Shown in pieces: positions 1 through 24,517 of a DNA stretch of 24,899 bases; within the stretch, counting starts at the first letter, position 1; each line of letters begins with the position of its first letter. A program made the translations under genes and the position numbers. Under the pieces are notes generated by a model, which worked only from the letters and a program-made list of their open reading frames with translations, did not search any database and was not told the origin of the DNA. This DNA comes from a virus (Duplodnaviria; Caudoviricetes), in IMG/VR virus record IMGVR_UViG_3300027762_000035, positions 1 through 24,899 of that record. One strand, written 5' to 3'.

Positions 1-311
1 TGGTCAATGCTAATGAATTCAACAAGGTTTCCAAATAAGATATACGTTGCGTCGCTTTTGTTGTGGTGCGCTTCGTTGTAGATGTTTTCGCGGTTTAGTA
101 TTTCAAAGAAATCCCGCATCACAGACGCGCGCAATGCCGGGAACGTCTTTCGCGCAATCGTTATCGTGGCGCCCGCGTTGGGGTTCTTATATGCAAGTTC
201 AATCAATACCAAAAGGAGCGAATACGTTTTGCCTGAACGCGTCCCGCCTTGGTGTACTTGAATGCGTTTGGTGCAGGTTTTCGCGTCGTAGTATGTACGC
301 GCTAACTTCAT
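1..311 (-). CDS. terL: Terminase large subunit, N-terminal ATPase part (PBSX-type; runs off the window edge)
   Basis: Not in the ORF track. Manual translation from the ATG at 311 (ATGA overlap with the terS stop) gives MKLARTYYDAKTCTKRIQVHQGGTRSGKTYSLLLVLIE...ITIARKTFPALRASVMRDF...LVEFISID, with Walker A motif GGTRSGKT. Confidence 0.93.
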   Translation of the reverse strand, partial: MKLARTYYDAKTCTKRIQVHQGGTRSGKTYSLLLVLIELAYKNPNAGATITIARKTFPALRASVMRDFFEILNRENIYNEAHHNKSDATYILFGNLVEFISID

Positions 312-670
312 TCTTGGAACCAAGATAGCGGCCGCGATTCCTGAACCTCGATTTCTTGACGCTCGACGTATCCGCGCGCCTTGCCTTTTGTCTTCAGGAA
401 AAATATAACCGCCGCCGGGTTCTTGTCTTTTATCAAAGCGTGAAGGTGCGTTTCGGCGAAATCCAACGCTTTGTCCGCGATGGATTGTACCGCGGCTTTG
501 TACTGCATATCCGATTGCATCCAATTGTAATGCGCCGACCTTGCGACGCCCGCAACTTGCGCGGCGGTGGAAACAATGCCCAACGATTTTTCGAGCGCCT
601 CCAACATCGCCGCTTTTGCCGCCGTTGTGTTCAGCGCCTCCGGCCGCGAAATCTTTTTTTGTGTGTCCAT
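308..670 (-). CDS. terS: Terminase small subunit / HTH packaging protein
   Basis: MDTQKK...KAAMLEALEKSLGIVSTAAQVAGVARSAHYNWM (HTH)...AAVIFFLKTKGKARGYVERQE. Lies directly upstream of terL. Start moved to the ATG at 670, which has an A-rich leader. Confidence 0.8.
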   Translation of the reverse strand: MDTQKKISRPEALNTTAAKAAMLEALEKSLGIVSTAAQVAGVARSAHYNWMQSDMQYKAAVQSIADKALDFAETHLHALIKDKNPAAVIFFLKTKGKARGYVERQEIEVQESRPLSWFQE

Positions 671-680
671 TGTTGTACGT

Positions 681-1109
681 TCACTTCCCGCAAAGTTCGC
701 ATTTTGGTTTGTCGTCTTCGGTGGGTTCTTTGGGTTCGTCAATTGGTACGTCCAATCCCCAATCAATCAACGCCAATTCGTCCCATTCATTCGCCAATGT
801 ATCCCAATCCCAATCCCCAAATGAAACGTTGTCTTTTATGATGAATTCCCGTTGTTTGTTTTCGGGCCATTCTACGACGTGAACGGGCGTTTCCGATATC
901 CCGGCTTCCCGCATCGCGCTTAACCGCATATTGCCGCCCAAAACAACCCCGTCGGGCGTACACACAACCGGCCGCGCCTCCAACATTTCAGGGAACGCCT
1001 GAAGGGATTGCACCAAGCGTTTGAAATCCCGTTGGCGAATCGTCCGCGGGTTGTCCGGGTTTGGCTTCAGGTTGGATATATGCGTTCTTCCGAATCCGGG
1101 TTTCAACAT
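681..1109 (-). CDS. ParB/Srx N-terminal domain protein
   Basis: LKPNPDNPRTI...VVLGGNMRLSAM...FIIKDNVSFGDWDWDTLAN is a typical phage ParBc-like domain. C-terminal CxxC. Confidence 0.8.
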   Translation of the reverse strand: MLKPGFGRTHISNLKPNPDNPRTIRQRDFKRLVQSLQAFPEMLEARPVVCTPDGVVLGGNMRLSAMREAGISETPVHVVEWPENKQREFIIKDNVSFGDWDWDTLANEWDELALIDWGLDVPIDEPKEPTEDDKPKCELCGK

Positions 1110-1330
1110 ATCGCTTCAGGTTGTTCGATTTGGTCGGCGATAAGTATCAACCATTCGTATTCGTACGAATCCATTGCGCGCTTGAATTCGTTTTGGGCTT
1201 CCTTGCAATGCTTCAAATTCGCATTTTGGATGCCGTAGGAATGCACAACGCCCGCTTTGGCGTACTTCCGTATGTTCGACGCAATTTCAACGCGTTCTTC
1301 GGGCGTATACGGGTTCATTTCAAAAGGCAT
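1103..1330 (-). CDS. Hypothetical protein
   Basis: 75-aa ORF that overlaps both neighbours by a few bases in a tightly packed operon. Confidence 0.65.
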   Translation of the reverse strand: MPFEMNPYTPEERVEIASNIRKYAKAGVVHSYGIQNANLKHCKEAQNEFKRAMDSYEYEWLILIADQIEQPEAIC

Positions 1331-1685
1331 TGCGAATGGCGTCTTGGTATTCCTTAAAAAAGTTTTCGCGGTTGCCGACGGCCCACCATTTCAGGAACCG
1401 CGTTTTGCGCCTTTGCTCGATTGCCATCGCTTGTTCGTCGAGCGTCCAAACGATGCGCCATTTTCCGGATTCATCTTGTTGGTATATCAATCCTTCGTCC
1501 TGCATCGTGGACAATACGGCCGTCAATGTTTGATGTTTGATGTTGCAGGTACGCGCGTCCTTGCGCAATTCCTGCAAATTCATCGGCCCGTTTTCATACA
1601 AGGCAACGTATATGCGTTGTTCGGTTGTCTTAATCAATCCCGATTGCGCCGCTTCGCGGAACGCTTCAATGCTTTTCTTGCTCAT
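1320..1685 (-). CDS. Winged-helix DNA-binding protein (putative)
   Basis: EQRIYVALYENGPMNLQELRKD...HQTLTAVLSTMQDEGLIYQ fits a wHTH pattern. The ATG at 1685 overlaps the upstream stop (TAATG). Confidence 0.65.
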   Translation of the reverse strand: MSKKSIEAFREAAQSGLIKTTEQRIYVALYENGPMNLQELRKDARTCNIKHQTLTAVLSTMQDEGLIYQQDESGKWRIVWTLDEQAMAIEQRRKTRFLKWWAVGNRENFFKEYQDAIRNAF

Positions 1686-1783
1686 TACTTGTACCAAAAT
1701 TTAATTACTTGAACTGCAAGCGCCGCTTGCAACGCAAGCAAGACGAATGCAACGATATCGCCGGGATGGATTTTGCGCTTCAT
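1685..1783 (-). CDS. 32-aa single-TM microprotein
   Basis: MKRKIHPGDIVAFVLLALQAALAVQVIKFWYK. ATGA and TAATG coupling at its two ends. Below the ORF-track cutoff. Confidence 0.65.
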   Translation of the reverse strand: MKRKIHPGDIVAFVLLALQAALAVQVIKFWYK

Positions 1784-1941
1784 TTCTTCGCGTAATATGC
1801 GCCGCGTACCTTGTTGCGAATACTTGCCTTCAAATCGTCAAGTAAGCGTTCCAAATCGCGTTCAAATTTCAAATCGTCTTGCCATTCGTTGAACGAACGC
1901 GCGGCCCGTTCGGGGTACGATGTGCTTTGAATGTTCGGCAT
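1780..1941 (-). CDS. 53-aa hypothetical protein
   Basis: MPNIQSTSYPERAARSFNEWQDDLKFERDLERLLDDLKASIRNKVRGAYYAKK, preceded by the ATCAAACAACA leader. Confidence 0.7.
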   Translation of the reverse strand: MPNIQSTSYPERAARSFNEWQDDLKFERDLERLLDDLKASIRNKVRGAYYAKK

Positions 1942-1955
1942 TGTTGTTTGATTAA

Positions 1956-1977
1956 GCCCCCGGCCGAAGCCGGAGGC
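1956..1977 (-). other. Intergenic RNA hairpin with cUUCGg tetraloop
   Basis: Minus strand GCCTCCGGC-TTCG-GCCGGGGGC. No long U-tract follows. Confidence 0.7.
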
Positions 1978-1994
1978 GATTTCGTTTGTTCAGT

Positions 1995-2186
1995 TCAGGC
2001 GATTTGCCACCGCGTACCAATTTCGGTTCGGCCGCTCATCAATTCAAAGTATCCGTTTTCGGTCATTACTTCGACGTATACGCCGGTATTGGTCATTTCG
2101 TGGCCTACGATTGTAACGCGGAAATCAACGTTTGCGGCGTCATTGTAAACCAATGAAGTTCCGAAGGGAAAGTTTGCGAAGGTCAT
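1995..2186 (-). CDS. Small early hypothetical protein
   Basis: MTFANFPFGTSL... First gene after the promoter at 2215-2266. Start moved to the ATG at 2186. Confidence 0.7.
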   Translation of the reverse strand: MTFANFPFGTSLVYNDAANVDFRVTIVGHEMTNTGVYVEVMTENGYFELMSGRTEIGTRWQIA

Positions 2187-2214
2187 TTTTTCTTGTCGTT
2201 GTTGTTTGATGGAG

Positions 2215-2266
2215 CAAACATACTGCATCGTTTGTTTCCCTGCAAACTTTTCGGCAAGTTTTTTTT
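2215..2266 (-). promoter_or_regulatory. Bacteroidota primary-sigma promoter (early P3)
   Basis: TTTG-N20-TATGTTTG matches the -33 TTTG / -7 TAnnTTTG consensus. A-tract and an extra TTGC lie upstream. Confidence 0.85.
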
Positions 2267-2987
2267 AGGCCCAACCGGGCAAATCCAATTCGCGAACGTC
2301 TTTGAAGTATCCGCCGGGCGTTCCGTCCCATTCTTTGAAACGCTCAATCAACCGGGCGACGCGTTCCGTTGCCATTCGGTGCGCGCGTTCGCTTTGGATA
2401 TACACGGCGACGTTGTGCGGCGCGGCGGATTCTACGCAAATCCAGTAAAACCGCGGGACGTTGAACGCTTGCGTATATAGCGCCGCTTGTTCGTGATATC
2501 CAAGGTTGTGCGCTTGACGTTGGAACCCTTCGGGCGATGCGTCTTGCGTCGTCTTCAAATCGAATATCCAAGTATCCGCAATCCCGTCGGCGATGCCGCG
2601 AAATTCGATGCCGTGTAATTCTTTGGCAATGCCTTGTTCGTACGCGTTGGCCGATTCAATCAAACCCGCCGCGGTGGGGTTGTCGAATATCGCTTGACGC
2701 ATCCGTTGGATGTTGTCGAAATCGGCTTGGGTCAATACGTCGCGGCCGGTGGCTTGCAGGGAAAACGCTTCAAATTCTTGTTTGCCTTCCTTGGTGCGTC
2801 GGTCAATCTTCGGCGCGACGATATACCGGGCATCGAATTCGTGCGGTTCCAATACGAAGCAATGCAACGCGCTTCCGGCAATCATTGCATCCGTCCGCGG
2901 CGCTTCGCCCGCGACGTACTGCAAGTAATGATTCGGCGATTTGGCAAACGCCTTCAATGCCGAATGTGAAATGTAGTTTCGTTTCAT
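2265..2987 (-). CDS. RecE/exonuclease VIII-like PD-(D/E)XK nuclease (DUF3799-like)
   Basis: YISHSALKAFAKSPNHY...GSALHCFVLEP...RRTKEGK...RGIADG..IFDLKTT...GYHEQAALY. Confidence 0.85.
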   Translation of the reverse strand: MKRNYISHSALKAFAKSPNHYLQYVAGEAPRTDAMIAGSALHCFVLEPHEFDARYIVAPKIDRRTKEGKQEFEAFSLQATGRDVLTQADFDNIQRMRQAIFDNPTAAGLIESANAYEQGIAKELHGIEFRGIADGIADTWIFDLKTTQDASPEGFQRQAHNLGYHEQAALYTQAFNVPRFYWICVESAAPHNVAVYIQSERAHRMATERVARLIERFKEWDGTPGGYFKDVRELDLPGWA

Positions 2988-3014
2988 TGTGTTCAGTTGT
3001 TTGAAATGAAAAGT

Positions 3015-3032
3015 AAGGCGCCGAAGCGCCTT
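3015..3032 (-). terminator. cUUCGg hairpin, possible weak terminator or processing site
   Basis: AAGGCGC-TTCG-GCGCCTT followed by ACTTTTCATTT, immediately after a stop codon. Confidence 0.55.
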
Positions 3033-3269
3033 TTAATTGTTCATTGTTTCCTCCAACGCCTCAACCTTCAACATATCTTCATCCATCGATGCGACAATGT
3101 GAAATGCCATCGTGTTGTGATATTTGTGTTCAATGTTGCGCAAGTAATTCACCGCAACTTGTCGCGGCAAAAATGCCAAATCGTATTCGCCGCGCTTAAA
3201 CCATTTTATTCTAATGAATTCATATTGCGGGTTTTGCTCAATGTGGCCAATCAAATCTTGAATTTTCAT
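3033..3269 (-). CDS. Early hypothetical protein
   Basis: MKIQDLIGHIEQNPQ... ATG at 3269 follows the leader TCAAACAACAACGACG. Confidence 0.7.
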   Translation of the reverse strand: MKIQDLIGHIEQNPQYEFIRIKWFKRGEYDLAFLPRQVAVNYLRNIEHKYHNTMAFHIVASMDEDMLKVEALEETMNN

Positions 3270-3289
3270 CGTCGTTGTTGTTTGAGGAA

Positions 3290-3538
3290 TTAACGGGCAA
3301 CCGCGGTTTGGAATGTGTGTGAAGTTGGGATTTGATTTGCGTAGTCCGCGGCCGCTTGTTTTGCGCCTTTGAGCGTGTAGGCCGCAAAGGATTGACCCGG
3401 AATTTCTTTTGTGGTGTAACGAACCGAAACGCGCCATTGTCCGGCGGCAAGGTTCATAATCGTGAAATGTGCGTTGTCAGTTACAAGCCGGTAAATTCCG
3501 TTGCTTCCCTGAACGTCGGTGGCGGTGTAGGTTTTCAT
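3290..3538 (-). CDS. Early hypothetical protein
   Basis: MKTYTATDVQG... First gene after the promoter at 3567-3616. Confidence 0.7.
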   Translation of the reverse strand: MKTYTATDVQGSNGIYRLVTDNAHFTIMNLAAGQWRVSVRYTTKEIPGQSFAAYTLKGAKQAAADYANQIPTSHTFQTAVAR

Positions 3539-3566
3539 CGTCGTGTTGTTGTGTTGTTTGATGCCG

Positions 3567-3616
3567 TAAACATACGCCGTTTTTTTCTTCCCGCAAACTT
3601 TCTTGCAACTTTTTTT
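3567..3616 (-). promoter_or_regulatory. Bacteroidota primary-sigma promoter (early P2)
   Basis: TTTG-N19-TATGTTTA (one mismatch to the consensus). Same upstream architecture as P1 and P3. Confidence 0.75.
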
Positions 3617-4044
3617 CATTGCCGCGGCGTCGCCGACAACGCGTGTTGGTCGGCATCGTTCGCCAAAAGATTTTTGATTTCGCGGATTCGGTCACGCAAG
3701 CACGACGAACACGTTGTTGCAGTGGCCGTCACGCCGGTTGCTTTGGCGTAGTATTCCGCCAACTTCGCATTTTGTTCAGCGGTGATATCGTTACCCAACC
3801 CGCCCAAAAATTCCGCGATTTCGTACGCTTCAACTTGCGTAATCGTGCCTTGCCATTTCCCAAGCGGACAAGCCGCCATTTTGAATTGCGCCTTAACCGG
3901 CATCACGCATCCGCACAACTGAACTTTTTTGACCTTTTTACCCTTCAGGATTGGCCCGCAAGTACGGGTTGACGTAACGTAATGCGGACACGCCTTACAT
4001 ATGGTCAAGCGTTCCGCCCGTGTTTCTTGATTGACGAATAACAT
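3616..4044 (-). CDS. Cys-rich putative zinc-binding protein
   Basis: MLFVNQETRAERLTICKACPHY...LCGCVMPVK..ACPLGKW...TCSSC. Start moved to the ATG at 4044. Confidence 0.75.
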   Translation of the reverse strand: MLFVNQETRAERLTICKACPHYVTSTRTCGPILKGKKVKKVQLCGCVMPVKAQFKMAACPLGKWQGTITQVEAYEIAEFLGGLGNDITAEQNAKLAEYYAKATGVTATATTCSSCLRDRIREIKNLLANDADQHALSATPRQ

Positions 4045-4483
4045 TGGCAAGTATTTTTTTGGTTCTTGATAGTGATTGGTAGATTGTCGCCGCCTGAATG
4101 CCCGATTCGCGGGCGACGTCTGCAAGGTTGTACCCTTCGATGTACAACCGCGCAATTGTTTTGTCGAAGAACGGCAATCGGTCAATGAAAAGTTCCATTT
4201 GTTCCAACCGAAGCGCCGTTTGCAAATCGTCTTTGTCGGCGATATCCGGAACGGCGCCGCGTTCCTCGATGCGGTATATTTTCTTGAATTGCCCGCGCGT
4301 CGCTTCAATGAATATCGCGGTGCAAAAATACCCCATCGGCTTTTCAGGAAACGCCTTGTCGATTACGCGCAAATAAACGTGTGAAACCAAATCGGCATCG
4401 TCCGCGGTATATCGTCTTGCGACGCTACACAAGTACGCGTAATTCGTGGACACGAATTCATCCCAAGATTTTTTCCAGTTCAC
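3995..4483 (-). CDS. ECF-like sigma-70 family factor
   Basis: Region-2-like YAYLCSVARRYTADDADLVSHVYL. Region 4: IDRLPFFDKTIARLYIEGYNLADVARESGIQAATIYQSLSRTKKIL. Confidence 0.75.
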   Translation of the reverse strand: MNWKKSWDEFVSTNYAYLCSVARRYTADDADLVSHVYLRVIDKAFPEKPMGYFCTAIFIEATRGQFKKIYRIEERGAVPDIADKDDLQTALRLEQMELFIDRLPFFDKTIARLYIEGYNLADVARESGIQAATIYQSLSRTKKILANVIRQSRNTGGTLDHM

Positions 4484-4856
4484 GAACTTCGGCGGTGTAG
4501 TGCGCTATCATTTGGGACAATTCCTCGATTGTATAACGCGCCGGGCGGTTCGATTTCAAATAAATTTCGTCCGCCGTCCCTTCGCCGTATTTCGCATTCA
4601 GGTTGCGCCCGAATTCAAATTGGCGCCCGCCGTTCATATTGCAACGCTTGCACTGGAATTGTACGTTCGCTTCGTCCCACCGCGTCGCATACTTCGCGCG
4701 GGTTATGAAATGCCCGGCGTCTACTTCGCGCCAATGCCGGTTCACGCCGCAAGTAAAGCAATTGGCGTGTCCCGATTCGTCGGCAACGCGCATCCGCACG
4801 AACCGCGAAAACACGGCGTCCAGTTTGTGAACTAATGTTGCCCGTTTTGTTGGCAT
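4458..4856 (-). CDS. ninG: NinG/Rap-family recombination endonuclease
   Basis: KLDAVFSRFVRMR...CFTCG...DAGHFITR..ATRWDEANVQFQCKRCN. Confidence 0.88.
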   Translation of the reverse strand: MPTKRATLVHKLDAVFSRFVRMRVADESGHANCFTCGVNRHWREVDAGHFITRAKYATRWDEANVQFQCKRCNMNGGRQFEFGRNLNAKYGEGTADEIYLKSNRPARYTIEELSQMIAHYTAEVRELEKILG

Positions 4857-5473
4857 CGTTCTTTGTCGCGTTGGCGGATTTCTTCGCGTTGTTCCGGCGT
4901 CAATTTAGAACGCCGTTTTAGGATTTCCGCAAAGGTCGGTTTCACTTCCGGCAACGACGCAATCAATTCTTCAAATAACGGCGTCCGCAACGCTTCACTT
5001 TCGATTGCTTCGCGGTAATGCTTTTCCCTGAATTCGCAAGCCGTATTCACGTCGTATTCGCGCAACGCCGCGCAAATTGTCGGCGTGTCAAGCCGCCCGT
5101 ACAAATCAATTTTACCCCGTCGTATTTGGCCGAAAACGTGTTTCACTTCCTCGACGTTCAGCGAGCGGAATTCGTCAATGATATCTTCGGCGCATTGGTA
5201 TATATCGTCCTCCGATTCAAACGTTTTGTTTACCTTGACGGCCCGCATTAGCGCGAACAATTCGCGCGAAATGAGCGCCCGCAAAAATGCGCCGTCTTCC
5301 TTGTTAGCCCGTGAAATGCTTATACCATACCGGCGTATTTGCTCCGGCGCCGTTGGCTTCAAGATGCCTTGCGAATCCCGTTCGGGTAAGGTTAACGCCG
5401 CGTAGTTCAAAAAGTCCCTTCCATCCGTTGGCGATGCTTTGGCCAATGATTGCGATTGCGTTGTTTTCTCCAT
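4832..5473 (-). CDS. Initiator-associated protein (possible helicase loader); start uncertain
   Basis: Follows the initiator gene. Contains EEVKHVFGQIRRGKIDLYGRLDTPTICAALREY. The ATG at 5473 is preceded by TCAAACA. Confidence 0.55.
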   Translation of the reverse strand: MEKTTQSQSLAKASPTDGRDFLNYAALTLPERDSQGILKPTAPEQIRRYGISISRANKEDGAFLRALISRELFALMRAVKVNKTFESEDDIYQCAEDIIDEFRSLNVEEVKHVFGQIRRGKIDLYGRLDTPTICAALREYDVNTACEFREKHYREAIESEALRTPLFEELIASLPEVKPTFAEILKRRSKLTPEQREEIRQRDKERCQQNGQH

Positions 5474-6029
5474 TGTTTGAAATTTTCTGCAAGTTATGCA
5501 ACGCCGTTTGTTCCGTTTTGGCGCTCCGATATTGAAACCGATGTTCAGCGCGGCGGTATTCCTTCCATTCCGACCAAGCCGCCGCGAATTCCTCCGAATC
5601 AAAAGGCATCACGATATCAACCGCCTTTTGTTTCATAGGTTGTTTCATAGATTGTTTTATATCTTGTTTCATATGTGCGCCATTTGGCGCAAGTTTTGCG
5701 CGTTTAGGCGCAACCTTTTGCGCGTCCGGGCGCAAGTTCTTGCGCGTATACGCGCAACTTCCAACCGGTACTTGCGCCGAAATGCGCAACGTTCTTGTTG
5801 GCCCGTAGCCGTCCCGCACGATGAAACCGGAACGCACCAATCCGACCAAGATTTTGCGCGCTTGTTGTTCCGAACATTGCAGGCGCTCCGCAAAATATAC
5901 GTCGCCTGCAAAGCATTCGCGGCCCGTATCAATGAACGAAGCAACTTCCGCAAGAAAGATGCGTTCGCCCATTGATAACGCGCGCAATTGCCAAATGCGT
6001 TCAGGAATCCAAATGCCCGCCCGCTCCAT
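5304..6029 (-). CDS. Phage replication initiator (N-terminal wHTH, lambda O-like layout)
   Basis: GIWIPERIW...CFAGDVYFAERLQCSEQQARKILVGLVRSGFI; repeat-encoded linker; C-terminal EFAAAWSEWKEYR...QSIANGWKGLF. Confidence 0.82.
   Translation of the reverse strand: MERAGIWIPERIWQLRALSMGERIFLAEVASFIDTGRECFAGDVYFAERLQCSEQQARKILVGLVRSGFIVRDGYGPTRTLRISAQVPVGSCAYTRKNLRPDAQKVAPKRAKLAPNGAHMKQDIKQSMKQPMKQKAVDIVMPFDSEEFAAAWSEWKEYRRAEHRFQYRSAKTEQTALHNLQKISNNGENNAIAIIGQSIANGWKGLFELRGVNLTRTGFARHLEANGAGANTPVWYKHFTG
5628..5675. repeat. Four 12-bp AT-rich tandem repeats (candidate unwinding element)
   Basis: TTGTTTCATAGG TTGTTTCATAGA TTGTTTTATATC TTGTTTCATATG. Confidence 0.85.
5675..5789. repeat. Five palindromic iterons TTGCGC-N6-GCGCAA (candidate origin)
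   Basis: Copies start at 5675 (GTGCGC variant), 5696, 5718, 5740 and 5772. Confidence 0.85.
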
Positions 6030-6246
6030 ATATCGTTTGTTCTTGACGCGTTACGGCGTCAACCATTACTTGAAATTCCGTCCCCGTCAACGCCCGAAAT
6101 TCCCGCGCATACTTCAGAAAGTTGCGCGGCGTTTGTGTTATCCAGTTCCGAAGCGTTGGGATTGTAAGATTCATCGCTTCCGCCGTTTCCGTGACGCTCT
6201 TGTAATGCGTCAAGAAAAGCAATTCCAAAGGGGTTTTTCCGTTCAT
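6001..6246 (-). CDS. Cro-like HTH protein
   Basis: HYKSVTETAEAMNLTIPTLRNWI fits an HTH. ATG at 6246, directly upstream of the initiator. Confidence 0.65.
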   Translation of the reverse strand: MNGKTPLELLFLTHYKSVTETAEAMNLTIPTLRNWITQTPRNFLKYAREFRALTGTEFQVMVDAVTRQEQTIYGAGGHLDS

Positions 6247-6388
6247 TTTGATTGATAAATTCAGTTGCTTGTTCAAAGGTCATTTCACCGATTCGCATCA
6301 ACCCGCTCACATTCGCAAACGGGTTGTCGCGCCAATAACATATCAAATCGGTTTTCGTTGTTTTGTCCGGTAAGGGTTGCCGCGGCAT
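6059..6388 (-). CDS. Hypothetical protein (C-terminal half overlaps the HTH gene)
   Basis: ATG coupled to the upstream TAA (TAATG). Fills the 6247-6388 gap. Confidence 0.5.
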   Translation of the reverse strand: MPRQPLPDKTTKTDLICYWRDNPFANVSGLMRIGEMTFEQATEFINQNERKNPFGIAFLDALQERHGNGGSDESYNPNASELDNTNAAQLSEVCAGISGVDGDGISSNG

Positions 6389-6762
6389 TACTGCAAAAGC
6401 GAATTGCGAAGGTCAAGCATTTTGCGCGCGGTTAGTACCAATTCTTTGTCGTCGTGAAAACTATATTCTTGACAAATTGCGTATTGGATTGCTTGCCCAA
6501 TCGCCCACGACGCATCAATTCGTTTTTGTACTTCGGGCGATGCTTGCGCCTTGGATTCCATTTGCGGCCGCGACAACTTAAAACTTGTCCCGTAGTTGCC
6601 CTCAGTTACCTGAACTTCTACTTCGTCGCCGACCTTCCAAGCGTCTTTCGTTTTGCAGTTTACGCGACCCGTACGGCCGTCGTCCAACGTTGCATCGTAT
6701 TGATACAACAAGCCAAACTTGGATTCCCAAGTTCCGGTGAATTGTAGGTTTGTGATTTTCAT
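6388..6762 (-). CDS. Putative OB-fold single-stranded DNA-binding protein
   Basis: Beta-rich N-terminus (GTWESKFGLLYQY..LDDGRTG...WKVGDEVEV) located in the replication cluster. Function inferred. Confidence 0.5.
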   Translation of the reverse strand: MKITNLQFTGTWESKFGLLYQYDATLDDGRTGRVNCKTKDAWKVGDEVEVQVTEGNYGTSFKLSRPQMESKAQASPEVQKRIDASWAIGQAIQYAICQEYSFHDDKELVLTARKMLDLRNSLLQ

Positions 6763-6917
6763 TTGTCGAAATGTTTTTCGATGTATTCGTTCAGTTCTTC
6801 AATTGCGCGCTCGACGTTGAACAAATGCCATTCGATGCCGTACGCTTCGCGGTTCGCCAATTCGCGCAACCAATGCGCGTAGTATTCTTGGACGTCTTGT
6901 TTGAATTCGTGTTTCAT
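6759..6917 (-). CDS. Hypothetical protein (52 aa)
   Basis: MKHEFKQDVQEYYAHW... ATGA overlaps on both sides. Confidence 0.65.
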   Translation of the reverse strand: MKHEFKQDVQEYYAHWLRELANREAYGIEWHLFNVERAIEELNEYIEKHFDK

Positions 6918-7108
6918 AGCGTCGCCAAATCCGCAAGCATTGCAACCTGAATGTTGTCGACGAAAATTGGACACAATTTGCCGTCGGGCGTCTTTGCTTC
7001 AACAAGCAATTGCGGCCCAAAATGCGCGTCGTGGATTGCTTCCGTCGTGAAGCCGCGCGCCTCGAAATAGGCGGCGGCGTGTTTCACTTGTTCGTTGGTC
7101 AGTTTCAT
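6914..7108 (-). CDS. Early hypothetical protein
   Basis: MKLTNEQ... preceded by the leader ATCAAACAACGAAACA. Confidence 0.72.
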   Translation of the reverse strand: MKLTNEQVKHAAAYFEARGFTTEAIHDAHFGPQLLVEAKTPDGKLCPIFVDNIQVAMLADLATL

Positions 7109-7127
7109 TGTTTCGTTGTTTGATGGG

Positions 7128-7364
7128 TTAGATTTTTACGTATTCGATTTTTTCGCATTGGAAGTTTGCCAACTTTTCCTTGGATTGTGTTTTCCACATT
7201 TTAGCGATATCCTTTGCGCGGCCGCCTTTGAATGCCTTTGAATCGCGGAATTCCAAGCGTTGCTTTTCAATCGCGATTGTTTCACCGGTGATTGCCGAAG
7301 TGTAGGTGTAAGACACTTGAACGGCGTACCAAATCGGTTGCAGGGTTGCGGTGTGATTGTCCAT
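7128..7364 (-). CDS. First early gene, hypothetical
   Basis: MDNHTATLQPIWY... First ATG after the promoter at 7394-7443. Confidence 0.7.
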   Translation of the reverse strand: MDNHTATLQPIWYAVQVSYTYTSAITGETIAIEKQRLEFRDSKAFKGGRAKDIAKMWKTQSKEKLANFQCEKIEYVKI

Positions 7365-7393
7365 CGTGGTGTGTGTTTGTTTGTTTGACCCGA

Positions 7394-7443
7394 CAAACAT
7401 ACAACAAGGTTTTTTGTCCTGCAAACATTCCGCAAAGTTTTTT
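7394..7443 (-). promoter_or_regulatory. Bacteroidota primary-sigma promoter (early P1)
   Basis: TTTG-N20-TATGTTTG with an upstream A-tract and TTGC. Confidence 0.85.
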
Positions 7444-7472
7444 ACCCCGATGCGTAAAAATTATTTGCCCAC

Positions 7473-7502
7473 AAAAAAGACGGGCCGCCGTTGCGACCCG
7501 CC
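7473..7502 (-). terminator. Intrinsic terminator ending the lysis operon and the candidate sRNA
   Basis: GGCGGGTCGC-AACG-GCGGCCCGTC-TTTTTT, with two G-U pairs in the stem. Confidence 0.88.
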
Positions 7503-7541
7503 TTCGTGTATCAAACAACGAATACAACGGCGATGAACCGC
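7473..7541 (-). ncRNA. Candidate ~70-nt antisense sRNA targeting early-gene leaders
   Basis: Lies between a TAACTTTG -7 box and a terminator. Contains UUCAUCGCCGUUGUAUUCGUUGUUUGAU, complementary to several early leaders and start codons. Confidence 0.65.
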
Positions 7542-7545
7542 GCCG

Positions 7546-7574
7546 CAAAGTTAGTCCATAAACGACAAGCACAA
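7546..7574 (-). promoter_or_regulatory. Promoter for the candidate sRNA
   Basis: TTG-N18-TAACTTTG. The TAA also serves as the stop codon of the last lysis gene. Confidence 0.65.
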
Positions 7575-7760
7575 CGGCAACACGGCCACCGCGCACAACG
7601 CCACCGAAGTCCATTCAATCCCGTTCGCGGCGATATCGTTACAAGCCGTCAACGCAATGATTCCGCCAATCGTTCGTTTTGCCGACCACCGCCGTAGGTC
7701 GCCCTTTGTCTTGAACACCTCCGTGAAGTCGAACCGGCCCAACAAATCAAGGATTTTCAT
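7551..7760 (-). CDS. Small membrane protein, holin-like
   Basis: MKILDLL...WSAKRTIGGIIALTAC...WTSVALCAVAVLPLCLSFMD has two hydrophobic segments. ATG at 7760 in an ATGA overlap. Confidence 0.6.
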   Translation of the reverse strand: MKILDLLGRFDFTEVFKTKGDLRRWSAKRTIGGIIALTACNDIAANGIEWTSVALCAVAVLPLCLSFMD

Positions 7761-7912
7761 TTGCGCTTGTCCGGAATCAACGCGTTGATTAAGCGGGCCA
7801 ACGCCGACGAAATTTTGTTGTCCTTCGTCGACGGGGTTAGGTTGGCGATTACGTCGAAAAAGACGATTGCCGCCGGGACGATTACCGCCCAATTTGCCAA
7901 AAGGAATTCCAT
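7757..7912 (-). CDS. 51-aa membrane protein, holin-like
   Basis: MEFLLANWAVIVPAAIVFFDVIANLTPSTKDNKISSALARLINALIPDKRK. Not in the ORF track. Confidence 0.7.
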   Translation of the reverse strand: MEFLLANWAVIVPAAIVFFDVIANLTPSTKDNKISSALARLINALIPDKRK

Positions 7913-7923
7913 TGCGTTTCAAT

Positions 7924-8373
7924 TTATAGGTTGGTAAGCGGTGGCAACGCGTTTGATTCGTCCAACTTCAAATCGCTGAACTTGTCGGCGACCTTAAACG
8001 ACGGACACGCCTTCGCGTTGGTGAAATCGTTGTGGCCGTAAACTTCAAGCGGCCCGTATTGCGCGCGTAACGTTTTGACGATGGAACGAAACGCGGCTTG
8101 TTGTTTCTCGTTCATCGTGTCTTTGGCTTTGCCGTTCTCCATCCCGCCAACGTAGCAAACGCCAACGCTATTTTCATTCCAGCCCAAAACGTGAGCGCCG
8201 ACCTTTTGAAGCGCGCGGCCCAATTCGACCTTGCCCGACAATCGTATTACATAGTGGTATCCGATATCCGACCATTTGCGCGCTTTGTGCCATTGCCGAA
8301 TTTCTTTGGCGCCGACGTCTTGCGTTGGGTTTGTCGCTGAACAATGCAGGACAATGAATTTCAGTTTACGCAT
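7924..8373 (-). CDS. Endolysin, N-acetylmuramoyl-L-alanine amidase (T7 lysozyme-like)
   Basis: IVLHCSAT...WHKARKWSDIGYHYVI...GAHVLGWNENSVGVCYVGG...GHNDF..KACPSF. Confidence 0.95.
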   Translation of the reverse strand: MRKLKFIVLHCSATNPTQDVGAKEIRQWHKARKWSDIGYHYVIRLSGKVELGRALQKVGAHVLGWNENSVGVCYVGGMENGKAKDTMNEKQQAAFRSIVKTLRAQYGPLEVYGHNDFTNAKACPSFKVADKFSDLKLDESNALPPLTNL

Positions 8374-8551
8374 TGAACATAGTTTTCAGCCACGATAAAA
8401 CGGACAACGCGAACGCTCCAAGCGCCGTCCAATACTTGCGCTCCAAATTGGTAATACGCTTGTCGAAATCATCGTTGTTGCCGTGTAGGTAATCCAACTT
8501 TGTTTCGATTCGCGTTATCGCGCGTTCCATCTTGTTTAATTGTTCTTGCAT
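8366..8551 (-). CDS. Coiled-coil + C-terminal TM protein (XhlA-like lysis accessory)
   Basis: Heptad pattern ITRIETKLD...RITNLERK followed by hydrophobic YWTALGAFALSVLSWL. Coupled to the endolysin gene. Confidence 0.65.
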   Translation of the reverse strand: MQEQLNKMERAITRIETKLDYLHGNNDDFDKRITNLERKYWTALGAFALSVLSWLKTMFNA

Positions 8552-8596
8552 CTAACCAAACCTTCAAAAGTTGTTCGTTGCGTTTCCGGGTCGATT

Positions 8597-9151
8597 TCAA
8601 CACGTTGAATACAATTCAAGGTTTTGCGTGTATCGCCCGCTTCCCCGGCTGAACGTCAACCCCGATTGATAGTAAACGAAGGGTTGCGCGCAAATCCGGT
8701 TTTGAAGGTTGGTCGTGTATTCCGGGATTGACGCCGTATTGTGACACAAATACTTGTGCATTTGCGCCGTGTAGAAATTGGCGTTCTGCCTGCAACGTTC
8801 AATTTCCCGGTGCAAATCGTCCGGCGTAATTGCGCTTGTGTTGTCCGAACTACGGATAACCAAACCGCCGTTGTCAATCTTGACGTGAAGCGTCGGCAAA
8901 AGTTCAACCATTGTCCACCAAGCAAGCGCCTTGCGCGCGTACGTTTCCACAAGGGTTTGATACGCACCGGCAAGCGTGTTGCCTGCAATCTTCGTCCGTA
9001 GCGCGTCGTACAAATCCGAACCCAAGTACAATTGTAGCGTCTTGTCTTGCGCAATTAAGACGGCTTGTGAAATGTAGTTTTCATCGACGCCGCCGTTCAG
9101 CATCGTTGTACGCTTCAAGTAATTCGGCGAAATGAAAAGAACTTCGGGCAT
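8597..9151 (-). CDS. Head-tail adaptor/connector (putative)
   Basis: Directly after the portal. LFISPNYLK...IAQDKTLQLYLGSDLYDAL resembles Bacteroidota phage adaptors. Confidence 0.65.
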   Translation of the reverse strand: MPEVLFISPNYLKRTTMLNGGVDENYISQAVLIAQDKTLQLYLGSDLYDALRTKIAGNTLAGAYQTLVETYARKALAWWTMVELLPTLHVKIDNGGLVIRSSDNTSAITPDDLHREIERCRQNANFYTAQMHKYLCHNTASIPEYTTNLQNRICAQPFVYYQSGLTFSRGSGRYTQNLELYSTC

Positions 9152-24449: not shown

Positions 24450-24481
24450 TGTATGATTGACGTTGAATGTTTGATTTTCTG

Positions 24482-24489
24482 CAAAGTTA
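24482..24489 (-). promoter_or_regulatory. -7 box TAACTTTG ahead of the structural operon
   Basis: Exact TAnnTTTG between the terL terminator and the chaperone ATG. No clear -33 element. Confidence 0.5.
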
Positions 24490-24495
24490 GGGCAT

Positions 24496-24517
24496 AAAAA
24501 AAGGCGCCGTAGCGCCT
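24496..24517 (-). terminator. Intrinsic terminator after terL
   Basis: AGGCGC-TACG-GCGCCT-TTTTTT. Confidence 0.85.

Follow-up and report, generated by a model that had tools for sequence, protein, structure and literature searches.

The minus strand of the window, by which we mean the whole 24,899-nt stretch of the record IMGVR_UViG_3300027762_000035 that was analysed, probably encodes at 7553-7473 a small RNA of ~69 nt that would be made from its own promoter and be directed against the start regions of several early genes. Judged from its letters and those of related phages, the element is real, conserved and co-evolving. It lies at the junction of the late and early genes, where a -7 box is followed by a mirror, in two blocks, of the early leaders and then by a terminator.

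Genome setting

The window holds nearly all of the genome of a small aquatic tailed phage (the completeness rating of the record is 83%), with ~155 aa of the large terminase, or ~465 nt of its gene, missing between its two ends. All recognisable genes are on the minus strand, in the order terminase, tail, capsid, portal and amidase, followed by those for replication and recombination. Among cultured phages the best matches to the portal are the Nonlabens phages P12024S and P12024L, at 32% identity, and the early promoters are of Bacteroidota type; the host is therefore presumably a Bacteroidota (Flavobacteriia-like) bacterium. No match to an integrase or CI was found among the minus-strand ORFs of the window (43 compared with PHROGs and 22 with Pfam), nor any to an antirepressor in the PHROG and Pfam scans, and an integrase was found in none of the five relatives that are at least 90% complete. 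The genes for the 69-aa and 51-aa proteins would be lysis genes from their place after the amidase and their hydrophobicity, with no PHROG or Pfam match for either. The 69-aa protein, which served as the marker for relatives, has no match in cultured phages. Three of the relatives (L284, L285 and L286) are short contigs in bins labelled Sericytochromatia, Acidimicrobiaceae and Methylococcus, and are probably mis-binned.

A 162-aa ECF sigma-like protein is encoded at 3995-4483 on the minus strand (PHROG 1740, E 1e-5; Pfam below cut-off). It could serve the late and sRNA promoters, which have no -33 motif, and a similar gene is annotated in P12024. A weak HTH protein (Pfam HTH_28, E 0.016), Cro-like but without a divergent partner, is encoded on the same strand at 6001-6246, directly before the replication initiator.

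Anatomy of the element

The minus-strand sequence quoted in the original prediction, with its box, two blocks and terminator, is present as stated, TTCATCG being found at 7537-7531 and GTTGTTTGAT at 7519-7510 (Table 1). The element had been placed after the last lysis gene; it is indeed at the end of the late genes, but the box overlaps the TAA stop of the gene at 7760-7551, so that 7554-7574 is coding. An unbiased scan for box, tract and terminator identified the 7553-7473 unit as the sole one in the window. The box has no -33 TTTG at the spacing of the early promoters; a sigma-70 promoter scan is ill-suited to a promoter of this Bacteroidota type.

The predicted fold of 7543-7472 has a z of -3.4 and comprises two small stem-loops and the terminator. 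In two close clades pairing in the terminator stem is kept by all four substitutions, each of them one-sided only, and in the L003-type clade the UUCA loop is retained on a different stem. Eight nt of the seed, at 7531-7524, are complementary to the terminator loop and 3' arm at 7493-7486 of the minus strand, so that an alternative fold is possible. Terminator loops containing AACG are seen in 9 of 19 clades, with no evident matching seeds.

Table 1. Features of the predicted sRNA, its predicted targets and their surroundings (positions in the window unless another sequence is named).
Feature	Position	Strand	Remarks
Bacteroidota -7 box TAACTTTG	7546..7553	-	overlaps TAA stop of 69-aa gene
Predicted sRNA, ~69 nt	7473..7541	-	start inferred 4-5 nt past box, +/- 2
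Stem-loop 1, anti-start block UUCAUCG (7537-7531) centred on loop	7527..7541	-	predicted fold
Weak stem-loop 2, anti-leader block GUUGUUUGAU (7519-7510) partly in loop	7507..7526	-	predicted fold
Intrinsic terminator, common to late operon and sRNA	7473..7505	-	13-pair stem 7505-7476, loop AACG, U-run to 7473
Leader, ATG 7364 (first early gene; 78 aa, without family)	7362..7388	-	predicted target
Leader, ATG 7108 (64 aa), 13-nt perfect complement	7106..7124	-	predicted target
Leader, ATG 5473 (213 aa, after replication initiator), weakest duplex	5471..5480	-	additional predicted target
Leader, ATG 3538 (82 aa), directly 3' of early promoter 3597-3567	3536..3562	-	predicted target; best-ranked leader
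Leader, ATG 3269 (78 aa)	3267..3285	-	predicted target
Leader of exonuclease VIII-like gene, ATG 2987, hairpin before	2985..3004	-	predicted target
Leader, ATG 2186 (63 aa), downstream of early promoter 2246-2215	2184..2210	-	predicted target
Leader, ATG 1941 (53 aa), hairpin before	1939..1952	-	predicted target
First early promoter, -33 TTTG and -7 TATGTTTG	7394..7425	-	3 pattern matches, 0.15 expected
Predicted late (structural-operon) promoter, -7 box only	24481..24498	-	8-mer identical to sRNA box
Endolysin (amidase)	7924..8373	-	PHROG 822, E 2e-58
69-aa hydrophobic protein, final late-operon gene	7551..7760	-	holin-like by position (inferred); marker for relatives
P12024 unit, NC_018272.1	L323:9826-9900		after holin
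P12024 unit, NC_018271.1	L324:10174-10250		after holin

Early leaders and promoters

The leader pattern TCAAACAA-N0-25-ATG has eight matches in the window where 0.85 would be expected, a number reached in 0 of 100 shuffles. Seven of them precede early genes on the minus strand; the eighth, on the plus strand, is the element, which agrees with the claim that it is the only inverted copy of the leader. About seven early leaders had been proposed as targets: all seven named exist, as does the 13-nt perfect complement at 7124-7112 before ATG 7108, but an eighth leader was found at 5480 (TCAAACAATGG). The early blocks are headed by three promoters of the form TTTGC-N-TAYVTTTR, at 7425, 3597 and 2246. 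Small hairpins precede internal early leaders at 3032-3004 and ~1985-1952 of the minus strand, and the opposite strand of these hairpin-leader cassettes has the order anti-AUG, anti-leader, hairpin, like the sRNA, giving a possible origin by inversion.

The pattern TTTATG-N3-TAACTTTGC, which was derived from the two sites concerned, is found only at the sRNA box and at the late-operon box at 24498-24481. The likeness of the sRNA box to the late promoter, and its unlikeness to the early promoters, weakly suggests that the sRNA would be made late. The promoter class is drawn from the window, L127 and L133/L134, since the late promoters of distant clades were not located (one of five records matched). 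Downstream of the large terminase, L127, L133 and L134 have one more promoter of early type, with a leader and a small gene, before the late promoter, which are absent from the window; the inserted cassettes bear the same leader address.

Predicted pairing with the early leaders

For the eight leaders, which were selected by their motif, the mean duplex energy is -20.2 kcal/mol compared with -12.2 (sd 1.6) in 1000 shuffles, none of which reaches this value. When the window was scanned for duplexes with a correction for accessibility, the leaders ranked 3, 7, 9, 10, 13 and 14 among the minus-strand sites, with a modest net binding of -11 to -13 kcal/mol. Every leader is outranked by two non-leader sites, of which the top one is at 21538-21509 and the next within the tail-fibre gene, and the leaders of ATG 7364 and ATG 2186 are absent from the 22 sites listed. 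The expectation that the seven leaders would head such a scan was therefore realised in part, six of the top 14 minus-strand places being leaders but the first two not. When sites are ranked by Watson-Crick alignment, leaders take the first three places on the coding strand.

Conservation and co-variation in relatives

Both blocks are kept in all six amidase relatives; the linker and terminator diverge. Searches with the 69-aa marker protein, from which the best 80 of 291 viral and the best 80 of 432 metagenome matches were fetched, gave, together with the window and earlier loci, 164 marker matches representing 88 distinct gene ends. When these were sorted by hand, a short U/G-rich tract and a terminator were seen 3' of the marker gene in 64, with 20 lacking them and 4 cut off. 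In keeping with the original prediction, the element is thus conserved in its position. Scanning viral contigs with a loose DNA pattern returned 120 stretches, and those inspected were AT-rich chance matches without a terminator. As a sample of generic host 3' UTRs, 183 kb of one Flavobacteriales genome were examined, and 40 hairpin candidates located behind 408 long ORFs showed no such tract. In this sample, which is single, small and possibly not from a host, clear terminators mostly come after sequence that is A-rich or mixed.

The co-variation analysis began with 56 loci for which a terminator had been called and the downstream sequence was at least 1.5 kb long. L151 and L189 were left out because their hairpins are other than this terminator, as were loci in which fewer than five early starts were predicted; L001 was merged into the window clade, three loci were assigned to other clades and two truncated tracts were extended, giving 46 loci in 19 clades. 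Gene starts were called by a simple A-richness rule, which adds noise. The reverse complement of the tract scored 21.4 against the early starts of its own phage and 17.7 against those of other clades (permutation, 19 clades). The preference for own starts has p about 1e-5 whether measured by alignment score, longest exact match or duplex energy, for clades that are not independent of each other. The region after the lysis genes thus co-varies with each phage's own early leaders across the 19 clades, as had been anticipated. By alignment score the own phage is within the top three in 15 of the 19; for L264, L181, L192 and L157 it is only 5th to 10th of 19. The mirrors of L177, L240 and L140 fit leaders that are peculiar to each.

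Late starts gave no such preference (p 0.70), nor did windows of coding sequence at +60 (p 0.50), the complement (p 0.34), three shuffles (p 0.18-0.78) or the segment past the terminator (p 0.56). Of the controls, two were weakly positive: the final codons of the marker gene (p 0.003) and windows of coding sequence at +150 (p 0.025). A stricter sister test on nine disjoint clade pairs gave 7/9 (p 0.09), and the window clade does no better than the sister L134 clade, the leader motif being common to both. The co-variation persists when the first gene is dropped, and likewise for targets at distances above 1 kb, so that action in trans is favoured.

The promoter box across clades

A strict TAnnTTTG is found within -42 to +12 of the marker stop, a window picked after inspection, in 10 of the 23 element-bearing clades, compared with 0.87 expected from synonymous resampling. 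It is found in none of the 11 element-less groups, in none of ten upstream windows and at only one of 168 other ORF ends. Relaxed patterns, which were post hoc, identify a box in 16 and 20 of the 23 clades, and three have none even so. The box of the closest relative, L002, is degenerate (TAAATTCG). Depending on the clade the box is positioned over the stop, just past it or within the last codons, and the predicted RNAs range from 64 to 93 nt.

Units at other positions

Over 729 kb of phage stretches, which overlap in part, scanning for box, tract and terminator gave 26 units, mostly this element; 183 kb of a Flavobacteriales genome gave none. L140 carries two, the second of which (L140:5026-5103) is an anti-start unit 3' of an early HTH-like gene; its first 13 letters are those of the L002 unit, and its seed mirrors the leaders of L140 itself. 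Since this second unit follows a different gene, the cassette would seem able to move. Units were also found in L286, L287 and L173, all outside the co-variation set. Those at L173:6166-6240 and L287:236-310 are away from the marker gene, and the lysis/early junction of these phages is without the element. As a held-out test, 18 loci in which the marker gene is without the element were scanned and no true unit was found within 2.5 kb; in those 18 marker arrangements the element is absent or elsewhere, L173 having one 4 kb upstream.

The cultured Nonlabens phages P12024L and P12024S have a free-standing box, U-rich tract and terminator 3' of the holin, all unannotated. The mirrored 11-mer is found elsewhere only in promoter-proximal leaders, two in P12024L and one in P12024S. 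Leaders are not dominant in the alignment ranking of this AT-rich genome.

Alternative explanations

The main rival to an RNA acting by pairing, and one that we regard as unlikely, is that the mirror is kept at the level of the DNA, either as an inverted hairpin-leader-ATG cassette homogenised by recombination or as an operator for a leader-binding protein. The opposite strand of the cassette formed by the hairpin at 3032-3015 and the leader at 3004 already has anti-AUG, anti-leader, hairpin and U-run, and such an opposite-strand cassette was picked up in L140 by the unit scan, so that an origin by inversion would be easy. Among the products of the phage there is also an exonuclease VIII-like enzyme, as well as weak HTH proteins, and there is no excess of G-U-tolerated mismatches in own alignments (21 wobble against 30 mirror, p 0.39), which does not favour pairing as RNA. 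This explanation does not account, however, for the -7 box in the codons just upstream, the fixed orientation of box and terminator or the pairing of the whole AUG in a top-three alignment in 11 of 19 clades. The matches, moreover, are gapped two-block mosaics rather than copies of a single leader, and five of the eight leaders have no adjoining promoter. It is also quite unlikely, in our estimation, that there is no separate promoter and that pairing is by the late lysis mRNA, through its 3' end or a processed fragment, which would make for a strict switch from early to late, or that the action is in cis on read-through transcripts. The tract is within the 3' UTR of the late operon and has the terminator in common with it, three of the 23 clades have no box and that of L002 is degenerate, and one FopS member is described as derived from a 3' end (PMC11697453). 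On the other hand there are stand-alone or relocated units in P12024 and L140, the co-variation also includes targets more than 1 kb away, and UCAU and UUGUU, unpaired in the predicted fold of the short RNA, become mostly paired when 200 nt of upstream mRNA are added, so that the seeds would be buried in the long mRNA. Of the two origins initially offered, the RNA's own promoter is thus the better supported and is preferred over a plain 3' UTR; the excess of -7 boxes, too, is specific to the end of the marker gene.

If the RNA is made, its main job might still be outside the early starts of the phage, on A-rich host initiation regions or in titrating a host RNA-binding protein such as RbpB, though this seems very unlikely. 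The tracts have a generic anti-start character, scoring 17.7 against the starts of other clades where shuffled sequences score about 15.6, and FopS and GibS are reported to bind RbpB (PMC11697453). The specificity of the tracts for their own genomes argues against it, as does the finding that 0 of 44 starts in sampled Flavobacteriales stretches, a small sample and maybe not the host, score at least 24 compared with 4 of 15 own early starts. We think it highly improbable that the RNA activates or stabilises early mRNAs, or gives immunity in a carrier state against related phages, instead of timing the lytic cycle. The clade-specific pairs of address and mirror do resemble P1/P7 heteroimmunity as described in PMC12197685, and a box with only a -7 element could fire at any time, no -33 motif having been identified in F. 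johnsoniae according to PMC7366714. The pairing, however, spans the A-rich determinants and the AUG, which in known Bacteroidota cases represses, and neither the window nor the relatives at least 90% complete gave a match to an integrase, or the window to CI. It is barely conceivable, finally, that a translated plus-strand gene of 54 aa starts at 7533 and has the sequence as its leader, the reading that the original prediction named as fatal to it. The ORF is present, and ORFs of 52-141 aa in the same frame occur in five clades. Its frame, however, is the codon-aligned antisense of the 69-aa gene, there is no ATG in 9 of 23 clades (L200 among them owing to a shortened tract call), and the remaining clades use all three frames with lengths of 2-141 aa, so that the ORF is not conserved over the 23. 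It has no PHROG match, and the nearest plus-strand TAnnTTTG is at 6745, ~790 nt upstream.

Discussion

The reading that we favour remains that of a multi-target anti-start sRNA. Host RNA polymerase would start ~4-5 nt past a box written into the last codons or the stop of the final gene of the lysis module, and the short RNA would expose an anti-AUG loop and a U-rich anti-leader loop. These loops may nucleate in trans on the A-rich early initiation regions, which have no Shine-Dalgarno sequence, and cover the AUG, occluding the ribosome and blocking translation of several early mRNAs in the way that GibS and FopS act on host mRNAs. The weakest step is the purpose: the RNA might serve as a brake that accumulates during infection and silences the small promoter-proximal early genes as late expression begins. 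The box, without a -33 motif, is of the same type as that of the predicted late promoter, and late read-through would stop at the same terminator. The anatomy, the fixed position, the co-variation and the excess of boxes are observed, and transcription, pairing, repression and timing are predicted from them.

P4 CI is a phage antisense regulator, and with c4 and OOP was among the parallels drawn initially. Beyond those precedents, the closest functional relatives are GibS and FopS of Bacteroides. Lambda OOP and P22 sar are further phage antisense regulators (PMC12197685). Bacteroidota mRNAs have no classical Shine-Dalgarno sequence, adenines before the start matter, and GibS and FopS repress by pairing there (PMC7366714, PMC11697453). 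As these sources describe them in B. thetaiotaomicron, both RNAs have a sigma-ABfr-type promoter, a 5' seed and then an intrinsic terminator, FopS is about 65-70 nt long, GibS has two seeds, and pairing is imperfect around the start codons of several mRNAs. The window unit has, at the level of sequence, the TAnnTTTG promoter, the 5' seed, the intrinsic terminator and the FopS-like size, and its computed complementarity is likewise to several mRNA start regions. GibS and FopS, in contrast, are described there as host chromosomal RNAs with metabolic targets, whereas the window unit is phage-borne, has its promoter within a coding end and has a seed that is not conserved but tracks its own early leaders. 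The FopS covariance model RF04319 gives no match in the phage's own genome (0/1) but does match in the B. thetaiotaomicron control. More generally, no relevant match was found among 4227 Rfam families (1-9000, E up to 1; 7400-7620, E up to 10), the search at 7400-7620 returning two unrelated chance matches only.

With P1/P7 c4, as described in PMC12197685, the unit would have in common that a phage antisense RNA presents blocks in loops over the ribosome-binding region with a specificity that varies between related phages. In the predicted folds the complementary blocks are in loops, the anti-leader block only partly. Unlike c4, which represses a single antirepressor mRNA for immunity in temperate enterobacterial phages (PMC12197685), the window unit has about eight dispersed predicted targets, in a phage with no evident integrase or repressor and no C4-type match in Rfam. 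Neither an antirepressor operon nor a temperate immunity region was found in the window, from which ~465 nt of the terminase are missing. By analogy, the unit likely works like GibS/FopS and P1 c4 and is a member of neither. The start-associated sequence (SAS) of Cluster K mycobacteriophages is also a short asymmetric tag just before the starts of non-structural genes, and four Cluster K genomes are reported to have a single copy of opposite orientation, with no tie to a gene start (PMC3203893). The host phylum and the motif, here A/C-rich, are different. The function of SAS is left unknown in that paper, in whose main text neither 'antisense' nor 'small RNA' occurs. No description of the present element was found in the largely open-access literature covered, and the main text of a 2025 review of phage small RNAs gives no Bacteroidota case, the string 'bacteroid' occurring there 0 times (PMC12197685).

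Little has been settled about the way in which small phages that lack an evident repressor or regulator shut down their early genes. The same layout is present in cultured P12024L and P12024S, for which a host strain is named in the record, providing a directly testable system. If the proposal is true, a single RNA reading a common start address would be a protein-free regulon switch, the repetition of an identical leader before variable early genes would be explained, and a phylum without Shine-Dalgarno sequences would gain a compact design for a programmable repressor. It is quite possible, though we put it forward only tentatively, that Bacteroidota phages widely have a private start address on a class of early genes together with a mobile promoter-seed-terminator cassette whose RNA silences that class. 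Address and mirror would co-evolve in each lineage, giving viruses without a repressor a protein-free shut-off of early genes and possibly a lineage-specific exclusion of related phages.
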